A DNA stretch of 64,000 nucleotides, from NCBI GenBank assembly GCA_963705915.1, contig OY970126.1:296306-360305 (forward strand). Direction: 5' to 3'. Source of the DNA: an uncultured bacterium. Its GTDB lineage: Bacteria; Patescibacteriota; Minisyncoccia; UBA6257; 2-01-FULL-56-20. The notes under the pieces are model-generated. The model was given only the letters and a program-made list of their open reading frames with translations. It was not told where the DNA came from and did no database searches. Of the stretch, positions 56,629 to 63,051 are shown piece by piece; the first letter of the stretch is position 1; each line of letters starts with the position of its first letter. A program made the position numbers and the translations under genes.

Positions 56629-57660
56629 TTAACCGTGCCGAACTTCAAGGACGTCGCCGTCTTGGACGACGTAGTCTTTTCCTTCAACGCGAAGCCACCC
56701 CTTTTGCTTCGCGGCAGCCCAGTTCCCCGCAATGAGCAGCTTATCACACGCAACGACTTCAAGACGAATAAACTTTTTCTCAAAATCGGTATGAATGACA
56801 CCCGCTGCTTGCGGCGCCTTCGTTCCCTGCTCAATCGTCCATGCACGTGTCTCATCCTCGCCCGTCGTGAAGAAACTGATGAGGTTCAGCGTGGCATAGG
56901 CTTCGCGTACGAGCTCGGGAACTGATTGCGCCGACGAGAGGTCAATTACAATATGATGCGCGCCAAGCGACGCGAGCTTCTCGGTGAGCGCCTGCGGCAC
57001 GTCGGCCGGTGTTCCATTTAAAAGATAAATCTGCCGCTTGAGGGTGAGAAGGTTCACATCCTTCAGTCGTCCGGTAGTTGCAATCTCGTGCGCAATTTCG
57101 TTTGCGAGCGCGACGTCGGCAACCGGCAGTCGGCCGGCCTCAAGGCACGCCTTCAATCGTCCAAGCAATTCTTTGTCCTGTATCGCTTCTTTTTTTCCTG
57201 TGCGCGCTTCGGCTTCGGCCTTCGCAAATCGTTTTTCGACAAGCTCGAGGTCCTTCAAAATCAATTCCGCGTTGATAATCTCGAGGTCGCGCAACGGATC
57301 GACAGAATTTTCAACGTGGATAATTTCCGGATTCTGGAAGACGCGCAAAACGACCACGATCGCTTGCGTCTCCTTGATGTGGCCAAGAAATTGATTGCCG
57401 AGGCCTTCACCCTTATTGGCACCCTTCACGAGCCCTGCAATATCATAGAATTCAACAACCGCCGGGATTTTTTTCTTGGACTTGCTCATCAGAGCCAGCT
57501 TCTCGCCCCGGTCGTCGGGAACGGAAACAATGCCAACATTTGGATCAATCGTGGCAAAAGGATAATTTGCGATCGTAATATCCTGCTTGGTGAGAATTTT
57601 AAAAAGCGTTGATTTGCCAACGTTGGGGAGACCGACGATGCCAAGAGAAATTTTTGCCAT
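56629..57660 (-). CDS. ychF: redox-regulated ATPase YchF (Obg-family GTPase)
   Basis: ORF track 343 aa. GIVGLPNVGKSTLF P-loop and C-terminal TGS domain. Confidence 0.95.
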   Translation of the reverse strand: MAKISLGIVGLPNVGKSTLFKILTKQDITIANYPFATIDPNVGIVSVPDDRGEKLALMSKSKKKIPAVVEFYDIAGLVKGANKGEGLGNQFLGHIKETQAIVVVLRVFQNPEIIHVENSVDPLRDLEIINAELILKDLELVEKRFAKAEAEARTGKKEAIQDKELLGRLKACLEAGRLPVADVALANEIAHEIATTGRLKDVNLLTLKRQIYLLNGTPADVPQALTEKLASLGAHHIVIDLSSAQSVPELVREAYATLNLISFFTTGEDETRAWTIEQGTKAPQAAGVIHTDFEKKFIRLEVVACDKLLIAGNWAAAKQKGWLRVEGKDYVVQDGDVLEVRHG

Positions 57661-57670
57661 ATGGGTTGAA

Positions 57671-58651
57671 CTATATTACATCTTCATCAAAATTCAAAGT
57701 TAAAATCTCAGCGGCAATCTTTTTTGCATTCCCGTGTTTCAACATGCTGAGATATGATGTCACGCGTCCAGGTTTTGGATATTCTCCAATTCGCTTGAGC
57801 GCACGTCGTTTTGTTGCTGGGCGAAGCACTCTGTGATCGGGAAAACAAACCCAACCAAGAAAATCCACCCCCGACGCCCATGTCTTAATAGACACTTTGC
57901 GTGGATGCAGTGATAGCTTCAATGCCCGATCCAGAAAATCCGCGATATGTGGCATAAGGGCCTCGAGTTCAGTTTTGTCATCACCGAGGAACACGAAGTC
58001 GTCGGCGTAGCGAATATAATATTTCTTACGCAAATCATGCTTCACGTATCGATCAAACTCATTCACGTAAACGTTCACCAAAAGTTGCGATGTCAGATTG
58101 CCGAGGGGCAATCCCCGCTTTGGACTGCTTTCAAAACTATCGATCACTTTTCCGAGAAGCCACAGCGTACCCCTTTCGGGAATATGCCTCTCGATTACTT
58201 GCATCAATGACGAATGATCAACTGATGCGAAAAATTTTCGTATGTCGCATTTTAGAACCCAACACGTTCGAGTATTATTTTTTGACACCTTGCGAGCAAA
58301 ATCATAAAAGCGCCGCACGGCGCGATGGACACCCTTATTGTTACGGCAAGAATAGATATCGTGTACGAATTTCTTATCAAAATGTGGATATAGGATGCGA
58401 TAGATAGCGTGATGAAGGACTCTATCGCGAACGGTAGCTTTGTGGATGCTGCGTGGCTTTGGATCGCTGATGCCGAAAGCGTGATAAGCCCCGTGCTCGT
58501 AGATTTTATTTTTCAGGTCTTCGTGGAGTGCATATAAATTACTGGAAAGGTTGAGCGAAAACTCCGCCACGTCTTTCTTGGCCTTTTTGCCGCGCACGAA
58601 TTCCTGCCAAGCGGCACAGAGGTTTTCAAATGATATAATAGTTTCAAACAT
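57671..58651 (-). CDS. diversity-generating retroelement (DGR) reverse transcriptase
   Basis: ORF track ORF from 58720; the likely start is the internal Met at 58651 (MFETIISFENL...). RT motifs include YADDFVFLGDD and the DGR-RT-specific LPLGNLTSQLLVNVY (I/LGxxxSQ). It is collinear with the Bordetella phage BPP-1 bRT (EPKPR..., SDF.KFF.S.D, GI.FLG...H..LR). Confidence 0.85.
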   Translation of the reverse strand: MFETIISFENLCAAWQEFVRGKKAKKDVAEFSLNLSSNLYALHEDLKNKIYEHGAYHAFGISDPKPRSIHKATVRDRVLHHAIYRILYPHFDKKFVHDIYSCRNNKGVHRAVRRFYDFARKVSKNNTRTCWVLKCDIRKFFASVDHSSLMQVIERHIPERGTLWLLGKVIDSFESSPKRGLPLGNLTSQLLVNVYVNEFDRYVKHDLRKKYYIRYADDFVFLGDDKTELEALMPHIADFLDRALKLSLHPRKVSIKTWASGVDFLGWVCFPDHRVLRPATKRRALKRIGEYPKPGRVTSYLSMLKHGNAKKIAAEILTLNFDEDVI

Positions 58652-58667
58652 ATGAACGCAGGAAAAA

Positions 58668-59063
58668 ATGACAAGAATAGGGGGGGGGCAAATTTTACCA
58701 TCAACTCTCGTCAAGCTCAAAACCGCCTATAAGAATTGGCTCGCACTTTTCCATCATTTTCCAAAAGTGGAACGTTTCGGTGTCGGTCAGAAAATCGAGC
58801 GATCGTTTCTTGATGCACTTGAACTGATTTTTTTGTCGGGCTTTGCGCCCACCGAACAGAAACTCCCAATCCTGACAAAAGCAGTGACGCGGCTGGATGT
58901 TTTGAAATTCTTTTTGCAGATCGCTTGGGAAAATAAACTGCTTACAACCGAGCACTATTCCACTTTGCTCGCCAATATCGAGGAGGTCGGCAGAATGCTC
59001 TATGGCTGGAAAAGGGGCCTTGAAAGTAAAACTCCCGCGAGAAAAGCGGGAGAACCACAGTAG
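58668..59063 (+). CDS. avd: Avd-like four-helix-bundle protein (DGR accessory variability determinant), encoded antisense to RT/TR; contains G9 tract at codons 5-7
   Basis: ORF track 131 aa: ...LKTAYKNWLALFHHFPKVERFGVGQKIERSFLDALELIF...VLKFFLQIAWENKLLTTEHYSTLLANIEEVGRMLYGWKRGL. This matches the FPK.E+FG...EIG+ML.G pattern of TIGR02436/Avd proteins. An AGGA RBS lies 6 nt upstream. There is a GGGGGGGGG run at 58680..58688. Confidence 0.6.
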   Translation: MTRIGGGQILPSTLVKLKTAYKNWLALFHHFPKVERFGVGQKIERSFLDALELIFLSGFAPTEQKLPILTKAVTRLDVLKFFLQIAWENKLLTTEHYSTLLANIEEVGRMLYGWKRGLESKTPARKAGEPQ

Positions 59064-59171
59064 TTGCGAGAGAAGACGGGGTTGTCGTCGTTCCACCTGT
59101 TGTCGTCCAAGGCGTTGCATTCGCGTTCCAGCCGTCGTCGTTCCAGTTGACGTTGACCGTGCGAAGCACGC
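59064..59171 (-). repeat. DGR template repeat (TR)
   Basis: A 108-nt near-copy of 59527..59635. Read on the minus strand, every substitution maps to an A in this copy (A>G or A>T at about 14 sites, including the AAC codons), plus one 1-nt indel. Confidence 0.75.
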
Positions 59172-59488
59172 ACCACTCTCGTATATGCACCCATCCGTGC
59201 CACCACCCCTCGACGCATCTTGAGGTTGTATCGTATTCGGGACGTAGAAGTCCACCGAGTACATATACCAATTCCTGTTATATTTTTGGAAATGAGTTCC
59301 TGCACTCCCGCGCAAGACGTGTCCGACGCAGCTCTCGCAAAGAACCATCTCAAAGTCGTGACGAAAAAGCCATAGCCGTTCCGTATCGCACGATTTCAAA
59401 TTCAGTATAACAATTTATGTAAAGTATAAAAAATAATGACCCCTCCTGCGTTGCTTTGCAGAAAGGGGTCAAGGTGTCGAGGTTCCAA

Positions 59489-59505
59489 GGGGTCATTGAG
59501 ACCCC
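59489..59505 (-). other. GC hairpin (GGGGUC-ucaau-GACCCC) ~20 nt downstream of VR 3' end, as expected for DGR target-site cruciform/IMH-proximal structure
   Basis: Read directly. A second 7-bp stem (gacccct...aggggtc) follows at 59440-59473. Confidence 0.45.
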
Positions 59506-59519
59506 AGGGTTCCTAGTTG

Positions 59520-60164
59520 TCAGGAATTGCGAGAGAAGACGGGGTTGCCGTCGTTCCACCTGACGCCGTCCAAGGCGACGGCACCCGCGAACCAGCCGTC
59601 GTCGTTCCAGCCGACGTCGACCGCGCGAAGCACGCCTTCGCGATCGCGAACGTAAAAGATGTTTGCCCACCCATTATTGAGCAGGACACCTTCGCCGCCA
59701 TTCGCCTGACGCTCCATGAGTCGCCAGATTTCCGCGAGGGTAACTTCCGCAGCAGTTTCGCCACCAAGATCGGCGATGATCTCGCTGTCGTTCGCGCTCT
59801 GGGTTAGCGTGAGCGGTCGAAGCTCCCCTTCGGGAAAATCCTCCTCAACCTTGCCGCCGAACCAGCTCTTGAAGTTCGAGCCGTGTTCGACCATCTTGAC
59901 GCCAGATTTCTTGTTGAAGAAAGTTTTGTCCGCATTGAACGGGAGGCTCTCGGTCGGCGGGGGTGTCGGGATCGGTCGGAGAATTTTATAGATACGCTTC
60001 TCAACAGGCCCCTTCGGACGGTTCCGAATGGCCGCAACCATTGTTGCGATTGCGTCCTTCGGTTGTTGAAACACGAACTGCCCATCCGAGTTTGAAAGTG
60101 TCTTGAAGCAGGCTTGATGGGTCACGAGTTGCCCCATCATTGCAGGGATCTGTTGTTCAGTCAT
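59520..60164 (-). CDS. DGR target protein (214 aa, no signal peptide) with C-terminal VR encoding a CLec-like ...GWNDDGW...RWNDGN... ligand-binding tip
   Basis: ORF track ORF from 60272. The internal Met at 60164 is preceded by a strong AAGGAG RBS. The VR lies at the C-terminus. Confidence 0.75.
   Translation of the reverse strand: MTEQQIPAMMGQLVTHQACFKTLSNSDGQFVFQQPKDAIATMVAAIRNRPKGPVEKRIYKILRPIPTPPPTESLPFNADKTFFNKKSGVKMVEHGSNFKSWFGGKVEEDFPEGELRPLTLTQSANDSEIIADLGGETAAEVTLAEIWRLMERQANGGEGVLLNNGWANIFYVRDREGVLRAVDVGWNDDGWFAGAVALDGVRWNDGNPVFSRNS
59527..59635 (-). repeat. DGR variable repeat (VR) in the last ~38 codons of the target gene
   Basis: Pairs with the TR. It ends 5 nt before the target stop codon and encodes ...RAVDVGWNDDGWFAGAVALDGVRWNDGNPVFSRNS. 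Confidence 0.75.
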
Positions 60165-60366
60165 GGTATTTCTCCTTGTGACCGTTTCTACAGTACTCTG
60201 CTGTTGGATTTGGCGTATTGGTTTCGCCACAGCCCACAAAGGCTTACTCAAAGCCACTCTGGGCTGTAGCAAAATCTCCCTCTATCAATGTACTATGCCC
60301 ACATTATATACCATAATAACCCACTCTGTCAAGATCGCCATTCTTATCTCGTACTTACGCATGTCC

Positions 60367-60636
60367 TTATGAATGCGTCTCCACCGCCTCAAATGTTTCC
60401 GAAACTGCCTGGGTGGTATTCACAACTTTCACTTTTTCGTTTCCATATTTAGTTCTGAGCACAGTCATCAATTCGTCCGCGTATGATGGCGAGAGCACTT
60501 CAACACCGGTGAAATCCAAAACCACATCCTCCGTTTTGGCGGTCCCATTGACGATCTGCTGAATACGCAAAGCCGCCTCCCGTGCTACAGGACGGCCGTT
60601 GAGTACGGTATTAAATTTTGACATTTGGACGGTCAT
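60367..60636 (-). CDS. STAS-like (DUF4325-type) small protein, putative anti-sigma-antagonist-like partner of the upstream ATPase
   Basis: ORF track 89 aa: ...EDVVLDFTGVEVLSPSYADELMTVLRTKYG... resembles STAS/SpoIIAA-like folds. Starts 12 nt below the ATPase stop. Confidence 0.55.
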   Translation of the reverse strand: MTVQMSKFNTVLNGRPVAREAALRIQQIVNGTAKTEDVVLDFTGVEVLSPSYADELMTVLRTKYGNEKVKVVNTTQAVSETFEAVETHS

Positions 60637-60648
60637 TTGAGTGATTAC

Positions 60649-61473
60649 TTATTGCTTATATTTTACCACAAAAGATGCGAGAGTGCCGACGATAGGAAAT
60701 ACGGAGTGAGCCTTCTGTCCGTTCCCATCTACGACAACGAGACCAGATCCCGAATGGATACGTACTATACCATCAAATTTATTGATTGTCCAATCTTGGA
60801 TTACTTTCAATCCGTTGCCGCGCGACTCCCCCACTCTTCCCGTCACACCACTCATCCCTAGCACAATTGCATCCTCATCGCTCGCAATAGATTTATTCGC
60901 GGCACGCAGTGATCCACTGAAGCCGATTCCCGGATCGGCGACAACGATTTCAATACGATGCTTGTTCGGATTATGTTGCGCAAGAATGATCGCGCCACGA
61001 ATGCTCGATGGCCACTGTCCATCGTTGTGATCAAAAACGTTATTGCCGAGTTCGCCAACGAGCGCCGTCGCCCGCGCTTCATCCAATTCGTTCAATCCGA
61101 AATGCCTGAACATCCTCCGTATCTTTGACGAAAGTTGGGCCTCAAGCGCATCGCGGAATTCGCAATGTAGGATCTCACACACATCATCGCTATCGTGCTC
61201 GTTGATCTCTAAAGCGCGGAGGGGCCCCAAGAAAGAATTATACGTAAACTCCATTAAAATCTTATTAAAATGCATCCGCTTTAGGTACGTAAGCATGTCA
61301 GCATCCTTCGGCAGGACAAGGTTCTTGTCTGCCTGATCCTTGAATTCAATCCCCTTGAGGCATGCCAAACCAATGGCCCACGGGTCGAACCATGTTGCCT
61401 TTTCAAAATTAATCGTATGGCCCGGAAAAATTTCCTGATACCTCTTGTATATCGTGTCGAAGGTAATATCCAT
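60649..61473 (-). CDS. GHKL-superfamily ATPase (RsbW/SpoIIAB-like kinase domain) with ~130-aa N-terminal extension
   Basis: ORF track 274 aa. N-box ELGNNVFDHN, G1 VVADPGIGF, G2 RGNGL. Confidence 0.65.
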   Translation of the reverse strand: MDITFDTIYKRYQEIFPGHTINFEKATWFDPWAIGLACLKGIEFKDQADKNLVLPKDADMLTYLKRMHFNKILMEFTYNSFLGPLRALEINEHDSDDVCEILHCEFRDALEAQLSSKIRRMFRHFGLNELDEARATALVGELGNNVFDHNDGQWPSSIRGAIILAQHNPNKHRIEIVVADPGIGFSGSLRAANKSIASDEDAIVLGMSGVTGRVGESRGNGLKVIQDWTINKFDGIVRIHSGSGLVVVDGNGQKAHSVFPIVGTLASFVVKYKQ

Positions 61474-61737: not shown

Positions 61738-63051
61738 ATGAAAAAAATATTCTTATGTGCAGCGCTCTCCGCCTTCCTCGCGACGACGGCCGTGGGAGCA
61801 CACGTTTTTGCGCAGACAGCATCGGCGGGCGCGTCTCTCGGTTCGTCGATTTCGAGCGGTGCCATGCCACCGATATCGGCTTCGGGCAGCGGTTTTGTGC
61901 AGTTTAATAATCTGACGGTGCAAGCCGTTTCGGGAGCGTCGGCGCCGGCCACAATCACGGCGTCAGCGCAATTCTATCCTCAACTCCCACCGGGAGTCGG
62001 CGCCACCGTGCCGCTCAACGGCTCGACGGGCGTCTCCGTTGGCACGAGCGGCGCAGCAGGAAGTGCTGCAAGTGCGTGCTTAAAATATAATTCAGAAAAT
62101 GCTTCGACGGGCCTTGTGATCCCCTGCCCAATGACACCGCCAGTAAATCCGGGCGGGCCTTTGATCCCCGTGAGCAGCAGTTCGGCGAGCGCAGCAACAG
62201 GTGCAAGCATGCCAAACATCGCCGTTGCAGCTCCCTATCAAATCGATATTTCGACCAACACGGAGCTTATGTTCCGCGACCGGACGCCAGCAACCCTCGC
62301 CGACTTCGCGCAAGGTGACACTATCAACGTCTTCGGCTACTACAATGCCGACGGCAGCATCCAAGCCTATCTCGTACGCGATATCTCAAAACCGGTCGAG
62401 ACGCAGACAATGCAGCTCGATAACGTAACGCTCGCCTCACTCTCGGCTTCAAACGTACCCGCCACGCTCGAGGTGACGCAAGCGCAAGGCGCTCCGTGCC
62501 TTGGCTTCAGTGGAAACACCTCAGCCCAGATTGCTTGCCCGATGGGAGTCATGGCCTTCCCGGGGAATCCTGGCACGACAAGCGCAACCGCCCCAACCCC
62601 GAGTGGTGCAACACCGAACTTTGTACTCCTTCGAAAATATGTAGTGAACGTCGACAGCCAGACGATCATTCTCGACCGGAACCGGACGCAACTCTCGCTC
62701 GCGAGTCTCAATCCGGGCGATACGTTGAACGTGTACGGCGAGACAAGCGATAACGGCCAAACGATCGACGCCGATATCGTCCGCGACCTTTCCATCCCGC
62801 CCGCACCAAGTTCGGTGAACGGGACCGTTACCCAGGTGAACGCCGATGGGTCATTCGTTATACAGACAGATAACGGCCAGACGCTTACCGTGCAGAATCC
62901 AGTGAGCGTGGGAGAAACCGTGACACTCCAGGGCATGATTAACAGTGCTCAAAATCTCATCACTGAAATCTCGCGCCTCATGATCGCGAGCAGCACAGCG
63001 CCAATGCCCGTTCCACCCCAAAACGGACTTGAAATCCCAGCAAAGCGCTGA
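61738..63051 (+). CDS. secreted protein with repeated beta-barrel (DUF5666-like) modules
   Basis: ORF track 437 aa. Signal peptide MKKIFLCAALSAFLATTAVGAHVFA. Repeated D(T)INV(F/Y)G...DG(S/Q)...A..VRD(I/L)S motifs. Confidence 0.8.
   Translation: MKKIFLCAALSAFLATTAVGAHVFAQTASAGASLGSSISSGAMPPISASGSGFVQFNNLTVQAVSGASAPATITASAQFYPQLPPGVGATVPLNGSTGVSVGTSGAAGSAASACLKYNSENASTGLVIPCPMTPPVNPGGPLIPVSSSSASAATGASMPNIAVAAPYQIDISTNTELMFRDRTPATLADFAQGDTINVFGYYNADGSIQAYLVRDISKPVETQTMQLDNVTLASLSASNVPATLEVTQAQGAPCLGFSGNTSAQIACPMGVMAFPGNPGTTSATAPTPSGATPNFVLLRKYVVNVDSQTIILDRNRTQLSLASLNPGDTLNVYGETSDNGQTIDADIVRDLSIPPAPSSVNGTVTQVNADGSFVIQTDNGQTLTVQNPVSVGETVTLQGMINSAQNLITEISRLMIASSTAPMPVPPQNGLEIPAKR

Follow-up and report, generated by a model that had tools for sequence, protein, structure and literature searches.

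A chromosomal diversity-generating retroelement of architecture B3 in Patescibacteria, with a predicted structured template RNA and a one-base deletion in its template repeat

The window, a 64,000-nucleotide stretch of DNA from an uncultured bacterium, contains what we regard, with a probability of about 0.85, as a chromosomal diversity-generating retroelement (DGR) of the Patescibacteria (CPR) with architecture B3, which would work by the mechanism proposed below and has lost one base from its template repeat (TR). On the minus strand the order is the target gene with a C-terminal variable repeat (VR), a leader followed by the TR, an antisense avd gene, and the reverse transcriptase (RT) gene (Table 1). 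The initial annotation had described a complete DGR with RT, an Avd-like gene and a TR/VR pair, and all of these components were found where it had placed them. The layout was identical in 76 of 76 related loci. A TR followed by a reverse-strand avd and then by RT is the B3 arrangement typical of the CPR; in the part of Wu et al. 2018 (PMC5758913) compared here, B3, TR-(avd)-RT, makes up 90% of DGRs from the CPR. Since the B3 layout recurs in all of the related loci, the element is of an already known type.

Table 1. Positions of the DGR features in the window
Feature	Position	Strand	Remarks
DGR reverse transcriptase	57671..58651	-	326 aa, apparently full length; Pfam RVT_1, 8ub7_A, motifs
avd accessory gene	58668..59063	+	131 aa; Pfam bAvd; position conserved in relatives
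Terminator-like hairpin after TR	59032..59052	-	CTCCCGC-N7-GCGGGAG, then TTTTACTTT (to 59023); 12 nt past TR; proposed 3' end of template RNA
Template repeat (TR)	59064..59171	-	108 nt, 28 adenines; C missing at 59117 relative to own VR and relatives' TRs
Structured leader RNA	59170..59400	-	directly 5' of TR; RNAalifold, pair counts, covariance model
Leader P1	59393-59374 with 59371-59356	-	pairing
Leader P2	59341-59321 with 59318-59299	-	pairing
Leader P3	59268-59257 with 59192-59181	-	12-bp long-range stem
Two short hairpins within P3	59253-59250 with 59243-59240; 59226-59223 with 59208-59205	-	
Extended -10 promoter of leader-TR RNA	59404..59412	-	TGtTATACT; conserved, predicted
Intrinsic terminator of target gene	59440..59467	-	followed by T run; predicted
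GC hairpin	59489..59505	-	GGGGTC-TCAAT-GACCCC; downstream of VR/IMH
Variable repeat (VR)	59527..59635	-	109 nt, in frame; TR/VR alignment
Target (variable protein) gene	59520..60164	-	214 aa; VR is roughly the last 36 codons
Sigma-70 promoter	60303..60332	-	TTGACA-18-TATAAT, perfect consensus; upstream of target gene; predicted

The open reading frame of the RT extends from 57671 to 58720 on the minus strand, and homologues back the ATG at 58651 as its start. A profile search matched the protein to Pfam RVT_1 (6.8e-27). The LGxxxSQ motif of DGR enzymes reported by the initial annotation is present as PLGNLTSQ and is accompanied by YADD, so that the RT carries both the [LIV]GxxxSQ motif 4 of the DGR type and the catalytic YxDD; its 326 aa also lie within the range of about 320-350 aa usual for such enzymes. 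The best solved homologue was PDB 8ub7_A (E 9.6e-47), a 328-aa reverse transcriptase which we take to be the bRT of Bordetella phage BPP-1; residues 3-300 of the RT are collinear with residues 10-296 of this chain, which has the motifs IGSLTSQ and YMDD. Aligned from end to end, the RT shares 58-65% identity with proteins of at least 80 loci of Patescibacteria metagenome-assembled genomes (MAGs), and its 546 relatives, counted with one genome per species, come almost wholly from Patescibacteria MAGs. By its sequence the assignment of the RT to the DGR type is well supported, and the host range of its relatives fits that of DGR clade 2 as given in the part of PMC8144416 compared here.

The avd gene is divergent from the RT gene on the opposite strand, the two start codons being 16 nt apart. 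Its product matched Pfam bAvd (PF22296) at 46.7 bits (5e-12), above the cut-off of 40, and NCBIfam DivGenRetAVD (NF033474) at 59.7 bits (2.9e-16), below the cut-off of 80; a sequence search of the PDB with Avd gave no match. The 3' end of avd overlaps the terminator hairpin of the TR, and its stop codon falls within the IMH*-like terminus of the TR. The antisense position of avd was the same in 76 of 76 related loci.

We then compared the TR with the VR. The initial annotation had reported a 108-nt repeat occurring twice, with strictly adenine-specific mismatches. The coordinates of both copies held, and the copies differ in length, being 108 nt (TR) and 109 nt (VR). There are 14 substitutions, all 14 of them at TR adenines (10 A to G and 4 A to T), and none of the 80 other TR positions is changed in the VR; the tabulation of mismatch classes thus returned no substitution outside adenines. 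If 14 substitutions fell at random, the chance that all would land on 28 adenines among 108 positions is P = 2.9e-10, in agreement with the signature of mutagenic homing that had been claimed. Because the TR lacks one C, the differences between the copies are nevertheless not strictly adenine-only. The codon table confirmed that AAC codons of the TR appear in the VR as GAC, GGC, TTC or GTC; with AAT included, the VR codons are GAC, GGC, TTC, GGT and GTC, and the changes always fall on codon positions 1 and 2. The absence of non-A substitutions indicates that, measured against the rate of point mutation, little time has passed since the last homing event.

The last A-to-N difference lies at VR position 59548 and is followed by 21 nt (59547-59527) identical to the TR, which is also the longest exact match between the two copies. 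Past this identity the VR reads AATTCC and the TR reads AACTAC, a difference like that between IMH and IMH*. The ends of the two repeats thus differ, and so do the types of hairpin that follow them, as would be expected of an IMH/IMH* pair. The GC hairpin described after the VR was found at 59505..59489, beginning 15 nt past the stop codon of the target gene; its stem is identical in the related locus L082, while L085 and L087 keep just the four G-C pairs. When either half of the TR was searched against the two strands of the window, with adenine positions left out of the comparison, no further VR besides the known pair came up. A-biased TR/VR pairs with the same spacing were present in 66 related loci.

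The VR forms the 3' end of a protein-coding gene, the 214-aa gene named by the initial annotation. The ATG of this gene has AAGGAG 8 nt upstream, and homologues back the start. The target protein has a helical N-terminal part and a C-terminal domain that may distantly resemble C-type lectins, so that it is possibly a small lectin-like protein. It showed no Pfam family, signal peptide or transmembrane segment; a sequence search against the PDB gave no match, and a Foldseek search of the PDB with its model gave nothing significant. In the sister cluster P0006, differences occurred in 21 of 45 C-terminal columns and in 11 of 170 columns elsewhere, a variation in sequence which indirectly supports activity of the family in nature. 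Clustered at 90% identity, the target itself stands as a single sequence, with no VR variants in a collection of 15 billion proteins.

A structured RNA lies directly upstream of the TR. Its structure was first derived from 17 loci with RNAalifold and pair counts, and it includes two similar long hairpins with an invariant G.U pair in each. The covariance model (R1) scored 230.9 bits on the window, the second highest of 75 scores, and gave one match in each of 74 related loci, always ending at the TR; the leader was therefore found in 75 of 75 sources with upstream DNA. Over these 75 loci, 94.7% of the cells were paired, and compensatory changes were seen in 45 of the 50 pairs. Rfam 15 (4227 models), searched over 57000-61000 on both strands at E <= 1, gave one chance snoRNA match and otherwise none, and none of the RT-1 to RT-19 motifs, RT-10 included, gave a covariance-model match in the same region at E <= 1.

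Ahead of the leader is a predicted extended -10 promoter. It is conserved in the four closest loci, in which the 'n' base alone varies, and TGnTAnnnT ending 3-5 nt ahead of the model start was found in 48 of 75 loci; a control region gave it in 1 of 75. The promoter became evident only once the 5' end of the leader had been defined; a classical -35/-10 scan of the VR-TR spacer gave no consistent position. On the 3' side, a per-locus search for a hairpin plus T-tract, with shuffle controls, found a hairpin similar to that of the window after the TR in 51 of 70 loci and in 3% of the shuffles. At its base the stem keeps the sequence CTCyC/GrGAG, and the changes in its upper part are paired. RNAalifold on the raw MAFFT alignment of the TR 3' flank from 70 loci showed no structure, owing to scattered gaps. 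A pairing of the 5' flank (ACGAGAG) with the 3' end of the TR (CTCTCG), which would loop the TR, was rejected, since its energy over 70 loci (-14.4 kcal/mol) was close to that of shuffled sequences (-13.9 kcal/mol). The promoter and the terminator are predictions at the level of consensus, in a phylum whose transcription signals have been little studied. With promoter, 230-nt leader, TR and terminator in a row, the template looks like a transcription unit of its own.

The window shares most of its anatomy with the CPR B3 DGRs described in PMC5758913 and, as clade 2, in PMC8144416, as far as the parts of these papers compared here describe them: the gene order and orientation, a chromosomal site among housekeeping genes (here ychF, recR, dnaB and cysS), and a small target without signal peptide, transmembrane segment or Pfam domain. 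Those parts of the two papers make no mention of the leader RNA, its promoter or its terminator. Among the neighbouring genes, PADLOC gave a weak DrmA-like match for an HATPase-like protein and nothing else.

The initial annotation had likened the RT to that of BPP-1. The likeness held for the RT, which is collinear with the 8ub7 chain (presumably bRT) and has the [LI]GxxxSQ and YxDD motifs, and it extends to the Avd protein, the A-to-N pattern on AAC codons, the position of the VR at the 3' end of a gene, the IMH-like end differences and the GC hairpin after the VR. It does not extend to the layout. In BPP-1 (mtd-avd-TR-brt) avd is encoded on the same strand, upstream of the TR, whereas here, in the B3 layout, it is antisense and the TR abuts its 3' end. 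The host differs as well, being a phage for BPP-1 and a cell here. The structured RNA of BPP-1 (Sp, Rfam RT-10; PMC5737381) lies 3' of the TR, between TR and brt, whereas here the structured RNA is on the 5' side of the TR, with no more than a terminator hairpin on the 3' side. RT-10, which is part of the BPP-1 DGR RNA, is one of the Rfam motifs RT-1 to RT-19 (Weinberg et al. 2017, PMC5737381), which are likewise structured RNAs beside bacterial RT genes; its position relative to the TR is the reverse of that of the present leader. A separate TR RNA is known from Trichodesmium erythraeum, where the TR is an abundant separate ncRNA of 265 nt with its own transcription start and promoter (PMC4143802). 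That DGR, too, has a lesion: it shows decay in the sequenced strain and has frameshifted VRs (PMC4143802). Unlike the window, it has 12 targets and a TR downstream of the RT, its RT is of a different lineage, and it is defective through a stop codon in the RT instead of a deletion in the TR.

We propose a mechanism modelled on the BPP-1 paradigm and on the conserved anatomy. The extended -10 promoter (59412-59404) would drive an RNA of about 375 nt, made up of the 230-nt structured leader, the 108-nt TR and the terminator hairpin (59052-59032), and the leader would bind RT and Avd. RT and Avd would then reverse-transcribe the TR with misincorporation opposite adenines, and the cDNA would replace the VR from its IMH-like 3' end, recoding AAC, AAT and GAC codons in the ligand-binding face of the target protein.

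The one-base difference between the repeats bears on whether the element can still work in this way. The C is absent from the TR at 59117, where the VR has CC (59581-59580), so that the TR reads AAT GC- AAC against GGT GCC GTC in the VR. The TRs of three close relatives (L082, L085 and L087) read AAY GCC AAT GCC and align without gaps to their own VRs. The VR of the window retains GCC and has the length found in all 61 family members. The TR is therefore the altered copy. Length differences between TR and VR are known in about 7% of DGRs according to the part of PMC5758913 compared here; among the 67 TR/VR pairs that we compared, an indel within the mutagenised core occurred in the window alone, a difference from the other CPR B3 DGRs. 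Because the repeats are not colinear at this site, homing across it would not keep the frame: an unmutagenised full-length copy of the present TR was computed to give a target C-terminus of ...GWNANATPWTTTGGTTTTPSSLAIPDN followed by the stop. The VR would have been written from an earlier TR that still had AAT GCC AAC, the C being lost from the TR afterwards. Homing tracts that include 59117 would now put the last 20 codons out of frame, and tracts within the 3' half would leave the frame unchanged. The claim that the system looks intact and potentially active thus stands for the undamaged RT and avd frames and fails for the template; the deletion weakens the case that the DGR is functional as it stands and leaves its identity as a DGR untouched. 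Since both frames are undamaged, the defect should be recent, or else polymorphic in the population.

The deleted form of the TR is also present, on short contigs, in the Logan assembly of ERR11523672. Since this assembly and the window may come from the same reads, it confirms that k-mers with the deletion are abundant and not that the deletion is fixed. An exact overlap of 30 nt (k-1) at 59117-59146 joins two of the Logan contigs, L081 and L084, and it stops at the indel site, which suggests that the reads contain a second allele. The deletion might then be confined to a minority, co-exist with another allele or be an error of the consensus, with an intact TR in the population and a normal DGR in most cells. 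Such an overlap is that of a branch in a k=31 graph and not that of a coverage gap, and it ends in ...GAATGC, the base preceding the missing C. Since no exact match between TR and VR is longer than 21 nt, repeat collapse cannot account for the branch; with contig ends every few kb, we estimate the chance of such a coincidence at about 1e-3 or less. Nevertheless, both assemblies carry the deleted form, and the branch could sit at the other end of the overlap, at 59147, a TR adenine, where it could arise from VR variants with TR-like k-mers. Neither the undeleted TR allele (GAATGCCAAC) nor the deleted one (GAATGCAAC) had a hit among JGI metagenome contigs (0 hits). We consider such a population, with an intact TR and a DGR that works normally in most cells, rather unlikely. 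That the 108-nt TR is the original, in a fully active DGR whose RT slipped at an AAC and added a base to the cDNA, so that it is the VR that was altered, appears very improbable. The indel does lie directly 5' of an AAC, and in the part of PMC5758913 compared here 74% of TR/VR length differences adjoin an AAC in the TR and slippage is proposed; however, the extra base is present as GCC in the TRs of the three close relatives, it restores exactly GCC and the family length in the VR, and an original TR of 108 nt would require a compensating +1 slip at this site in every homing event.

The element could also be a decaying relic that no longer homes and whose TR deletion is the earliest lesion to be seen on the way to loss. 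Clear degradation is present in two of the five closest loci: the RT of L082 ends after 49 codons, and the leader of L088 runs directly into RT residues 275-319, the TR, avd and the greater part of the RT having been lost. The lack of VR variants of the target in the protein collection agrees with such decay. The complete RT and avd frames with intact catalytic motifs do not, nor do a promoter, leader helices and a terminator that fit the consensus (with R1 at 230.9 bits, second of 75), nor the zero count of non-A substitutions, which implies recent homing; we hold decay of the whole element to be unlikely. Finally, the repeats could be an ordinary duplication beside an RT of the retron, group II intron or defence type. 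The NCBIfam and PADLOC matches of the RT were indeed generic or below cut-off (group II RT, 143 bits with a cut-off of 300; DRT families weaker). This reading is effectively refuted by the A-only substitution pattern, the SQ motif of the best solved homologue 8ub7, the Avd gene and the same TR/VR logic in the 66 related loci.

The DGR itself is ordinary, one among many in the Patescibacteria. What it may reveal lies in its template RNA and its lesion. We think it possible, at odds a little short of even, that DGRs of the Patescibacteria clade make an undescribed, self-contained template RNA, about 375 nt long and bounded by a promoter and a terminator of its own, in which the covarying domain lies 5' and not 3' of the TR, unlike in the BPP-1 paradigm. 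If so, the recruitment of RT and Avd and the priming of cDNA must differ from the priming in the 3' spacer of BPP-1. The R1 covariance model could find TRs directly, and the leader with its promoter and terminator defines an RNA from which a CPR DGR could be reconstituted; the literature compared here contains no biochemical study of one. The window would also show a DGR soon after damage to its template, its proteins and cis elements intact and its template frameshifted. The assembly graph hints at a co-existing second allele, and the lesion may be purged, be tolerated via partial homing, or be the start of loss.

The element that the initial annotation described as a complete DGR with a mutagenic-homing signature is a genuine DGR: the RT, the Avd gene and a TR/VR pair with adenine-specific differences are all present, and the same TR/VR logic was found in 66 related loci. 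The RT matched Pfam RVT_1 (E = 6.8e-27), carries the motifs PLGNLTSQ and YADD, and can be aligned with all relatives from residues 1-2 of the 58651 start onward. The 328-aa reverse transcriptase chain in PDB 8ub7 aligns collinearly with it (E 9.6e-47); this chain contains IGSLTSQ and YMDD, and we take it to be BPP-1 bRT, in agreement with the annotated likeness to that enzyme. Of 89 phage records matching the RT at E <= 1e-20, 5 were from Bordetella phage. The annotated Avd-like gene, whose start codon lies 16 nt from that of the RT, passed the Pfam bAvd cut-off of 40 with a score of 46.7 bits; its best NCBIfam match, DivGenRetAVD, reached 59.7 bits, under the model cut-off of 80.

Features of the DGR locus (window coordinates)
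Feature	Position	Strand	Remarks
Sigma-70 consensus promoter	60303-60332	-	TTGACA-18-TATAAT, 12/12 match; 139 nt upstream of target ATG
Target gene	59520-60164	-	214-aa ORF ending in VR
VR	59527-59635	-	second repeat copy, 109 nt
VR hairpin	59505-59489	-	GGGGTC-TCAAT-GACCCC; 15 nt past target stop codon
Intrinsic terminator of target gene	59467-59440	-	with T run; predicted
Extended -10 promoter	59412-59404	-	TGtTATACT; predicted; constant in the four closest loci except at the 'n' base
Leader RNA	59170-59400	-	~230 nt; covariance model, 230.9 bits
TR	59064-59171	-	first repeat copy, 108 nt
Terminator-like hairpin downstream of TR	59052-59032	-	followed by TTTTACTTT; within avd 3' end, opposite strand
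avd	58668-59063	+	ORF matching Avd profiles, divergent from RT
RT ORF	58720 to 57671	-	ATG at 58651 gives 326 aa

Both annotated repeat copies were recovered. When TR and VR were aligned on the minus strand, all 14 substitutions fell at TR adenines (10 A>G, 4 A>T) and none of the 80 non-A TR positions differed (chance probability 2.9e-10). The substitutions were confined to codon positions 1 or 2 of AAC, AAT, GAC or ACG codons. The claim of strict adenine specificity therefore holds for the substitutions but not for the repeat lengths, which differ by one base. As annotated, the VR terminates the target gene, whose ATG follows AAGGAG at 8 nt and is supported by 60 homologues, and a GC hairpin lies beyond it. 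Past the last variable position, a 21-nt stretch is identical in the two repeats, beyond which the TR reads AACTAC and the VR AATTCC, a difference that in sequence resembles the IMH*/IMH distinction. No further VR copy was found within the window.

Among one genome per species, 546 RT relatives were found, the best 80 of which were 58-65% identical and almost all from Patescibacteria MAGs. The avd gene was antisense and directly upstream of the RT in 76/76 loci with enough upstream DNA, and in 66 of these the TR adjoined the avd 3' end, with the VR about 370-600 nt further upstream. By gene order the window DGR is of architecture B3, TR-(avd)-RT, to which Wu et al. 2018 (PMC5758913) assign 90% of CPR DGRs. 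It also fits DGR clade 2 as outlined in Roux et al. 2021 (PMC8144416), where that clade is cellular and Patescibacteria-restricted, with targets typically lacking recognisable domains. Since the flanking genes are the housekeeping genes ychF, recR, dnaB and cysS, the DGR is chromosomal. When within-family target proteins were clustered at 90% identity, 21/45 C-terminal columns differed versus 11/170 elsewhere; DGRs of this type therefore diversify in nature. One 187-aa protein (P0065) of a sister cluster of target homologues (P0006) is the same as its relatives up to ...DRDGVL and continues as CGA...RHHQ, with the VR segment absent; it may have a frameshifted or deleted VR or be an artefact of its 799-nt contig. 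At one related locus (L080:12781-12878), a second A-biased VR copy lies about 7 kb downstream of the TR and may mark a remote second target; every other locus had a single VR in the flanks examined.

Directly upstream of the window target is a gene pair (60367-61473, minus strand) encoding an 89-aa DUF4325/STAS-like protein and a 274-aa protein with weak similarity to HATPase_c and a weak PADLOC DrmA-like match (2.2e-05). The relatives' DGR loci lack this pair, which makes a link to the DGR unlikely. A low-complexity, probably secreted DUF5666 protein of 437 aa (61738-63051, plus strand) is another neighbour of the target, and the target of L087 likewise has a DUF5666 neighbour, of 465 aa (L087:943-2340).

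We then compared the one-base length difference with the closest loci, recovered via the target protein. The window TR reads GCG AAT GC- AAC GCC, and the VR reads GCG GGT GCC GTC GCC. In L082, L085 and L087, whose targets are 69-75% identical to that of the window, the TRs read AAC GCG AAY GCC AAT GCC and align without gaps to their own VRs. Wu et al. 2018 (PMC5758913) put TR/VR length differences at about 7% of DGRs, usually adjoining AAC, and ascribe them to RT slippage. Here, however, the relatives' TRs keep the GCC triplet and the window VR has the length common to all 61 family members, which favors deletion in the template over slippage; the window TR is, on this comparison, the altered copy, having lost one C of the triplet at 59117. 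Loci with related RTs supplied another 66 A-biased TR/VR pairs for comparison; of these, 5 had gaps, all at outer repeat edges, and the window pair was the only one with a gap inside the mutagenised core.

The deletion was also present in an independent assembly, the Logan assembly of run ERR11523672, where the locus is split between two contigs (L081 and L084) that both match the window at 100% identity. One spans 64000-59117; the second spans 59146-55487 and carries GAATGCAAC. The contigs share exactly 30 nt (59117-59146). Logan assemblies use k=31, and because the overlap is exactly k-1, the junction is a graph branch, not a coverage gap. One end of the shared 30-mer is ...GAATGC, the last base before the missing C, and the other is bounded by a TR adenine at 59147. 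Exact matches between TR and VR reach 21 nt at most, so repeat collapse does not account for the branch. The simplest reading of the branch is a second allele in the reads, which could be an undeleted TR or could be VR variants with TR-like k-mers joining at the 59147 end. JGI contigs scanned for the deleted or undeleted TR allele gave no match.

By the BPP-1 paradigm, RT-Avd would reverse-transcribe the leader-TR RNA, misincorporating at template adenines, and the cDNA would replace the VR starting from the IMH-like end. A full-length, unmutagenised copy of the window TR would make the target terminate in ...GWNANATPWTTTGGTTTTPSSLAIPDN instead of ...GWFAGAVALDGVRWNDGNPVFSRNS. Homing tracts kept 3' of 59117 would maintain the reading frame, whereas longer tracts would truncate the conserved W-N-D-G-N-P-V-F-S-R-N end. 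The annotation of an intact system thus stands for the RT and avd frames but not for the TR. Since those frames are intact and there are no non-A substitutions, the deletion is recent or polymorphic.

Of the five closest loci, two show visible degradation. In the closest, L082, the RT match ends after 49 codons and the ORF continues into a 662-aa gene of ~270-nt cadherin/Big_9-like tandem repeats (L082:5564-7846), which means that the DGR is disrupted or the contig chimeric. The 21 differences between the L082 TR and VR are still A-specific, and the two align without gaps. In L088 (L088:1052-1461), a fragment of RT residues 275-319 comes straight after the target gene and its leader RNA (215 bits). 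A deletion has removed the TR and avd along with most of the RT, and the next gene encodes an ABC transporter. Together, these loci suggest that DGR loss is common in the window's sub-lineage.

The 350-nt VR-TR spacer is non-coding yet strongly conserved in the four closest loci, and contains, in order, the VR hairpin, the target terminator, an extended -10 promoter and a leader reaching the TR. RNAalifold predicted 50 base pairs in 7 helices from 17 loci; 95.9% of cells were paired, compared with 79% in shuffles and 40-52% with slid partners, and 36/50 pairs showed compensatory changes. The covariance model (R1) built from this alignment matched the window once and each of 74 other loci once; every match was on the same strand as the RT and stopped at the TR. 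In the 75 sequences, 94.7% of cells were paired, 45/50 pairs had compensatory changes and compensatory cells numbered 1200 versus 354 in shuffles, counts biased towards structure because the alignment was fitted to the model. The two long hairpins P1 and P2 (59299-59393, minus strand) share one design (5-bp base, internal loop, 10-bp upper stem), with a near-tip G.U (invariant in 68/71 and 66/66 sequences) and then G-C; which strand is transcribed follows from the invariant G.U pairs. P1 and P2 have the appearance of a single protein-binding module that was duplicated. TGnTAnnnT ended 3-5 nt ahead of the model's first position in 48/75 loci versus 1/75 in a control region. A hairpin and T-tract within about 15 nt downstream of the TR occurred in 51/70 loci, versus 3% of shuffles and 14/70 downstream of the VR; its stem base CTCyC/GrGAG is conserved, and the two sides of its upper stem vary together. 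Window 57000-61000 matched no Rfam 15 family at E <= 1, save for a single chance snoRNA hit. The Trichodesmium DGR, whose TR is a separately transcribed ncRNA (PMC4143802), provides a precedent for such a unit, whereas the structured element of BPP-1 (Rfam RT-10) lies 3' of its TR (PMC5737381) and the window leader 5'. The window DGR belongs to a well-populated, known kind and is itself little new; the leader RNA is the most interesting by-product of its analysis.
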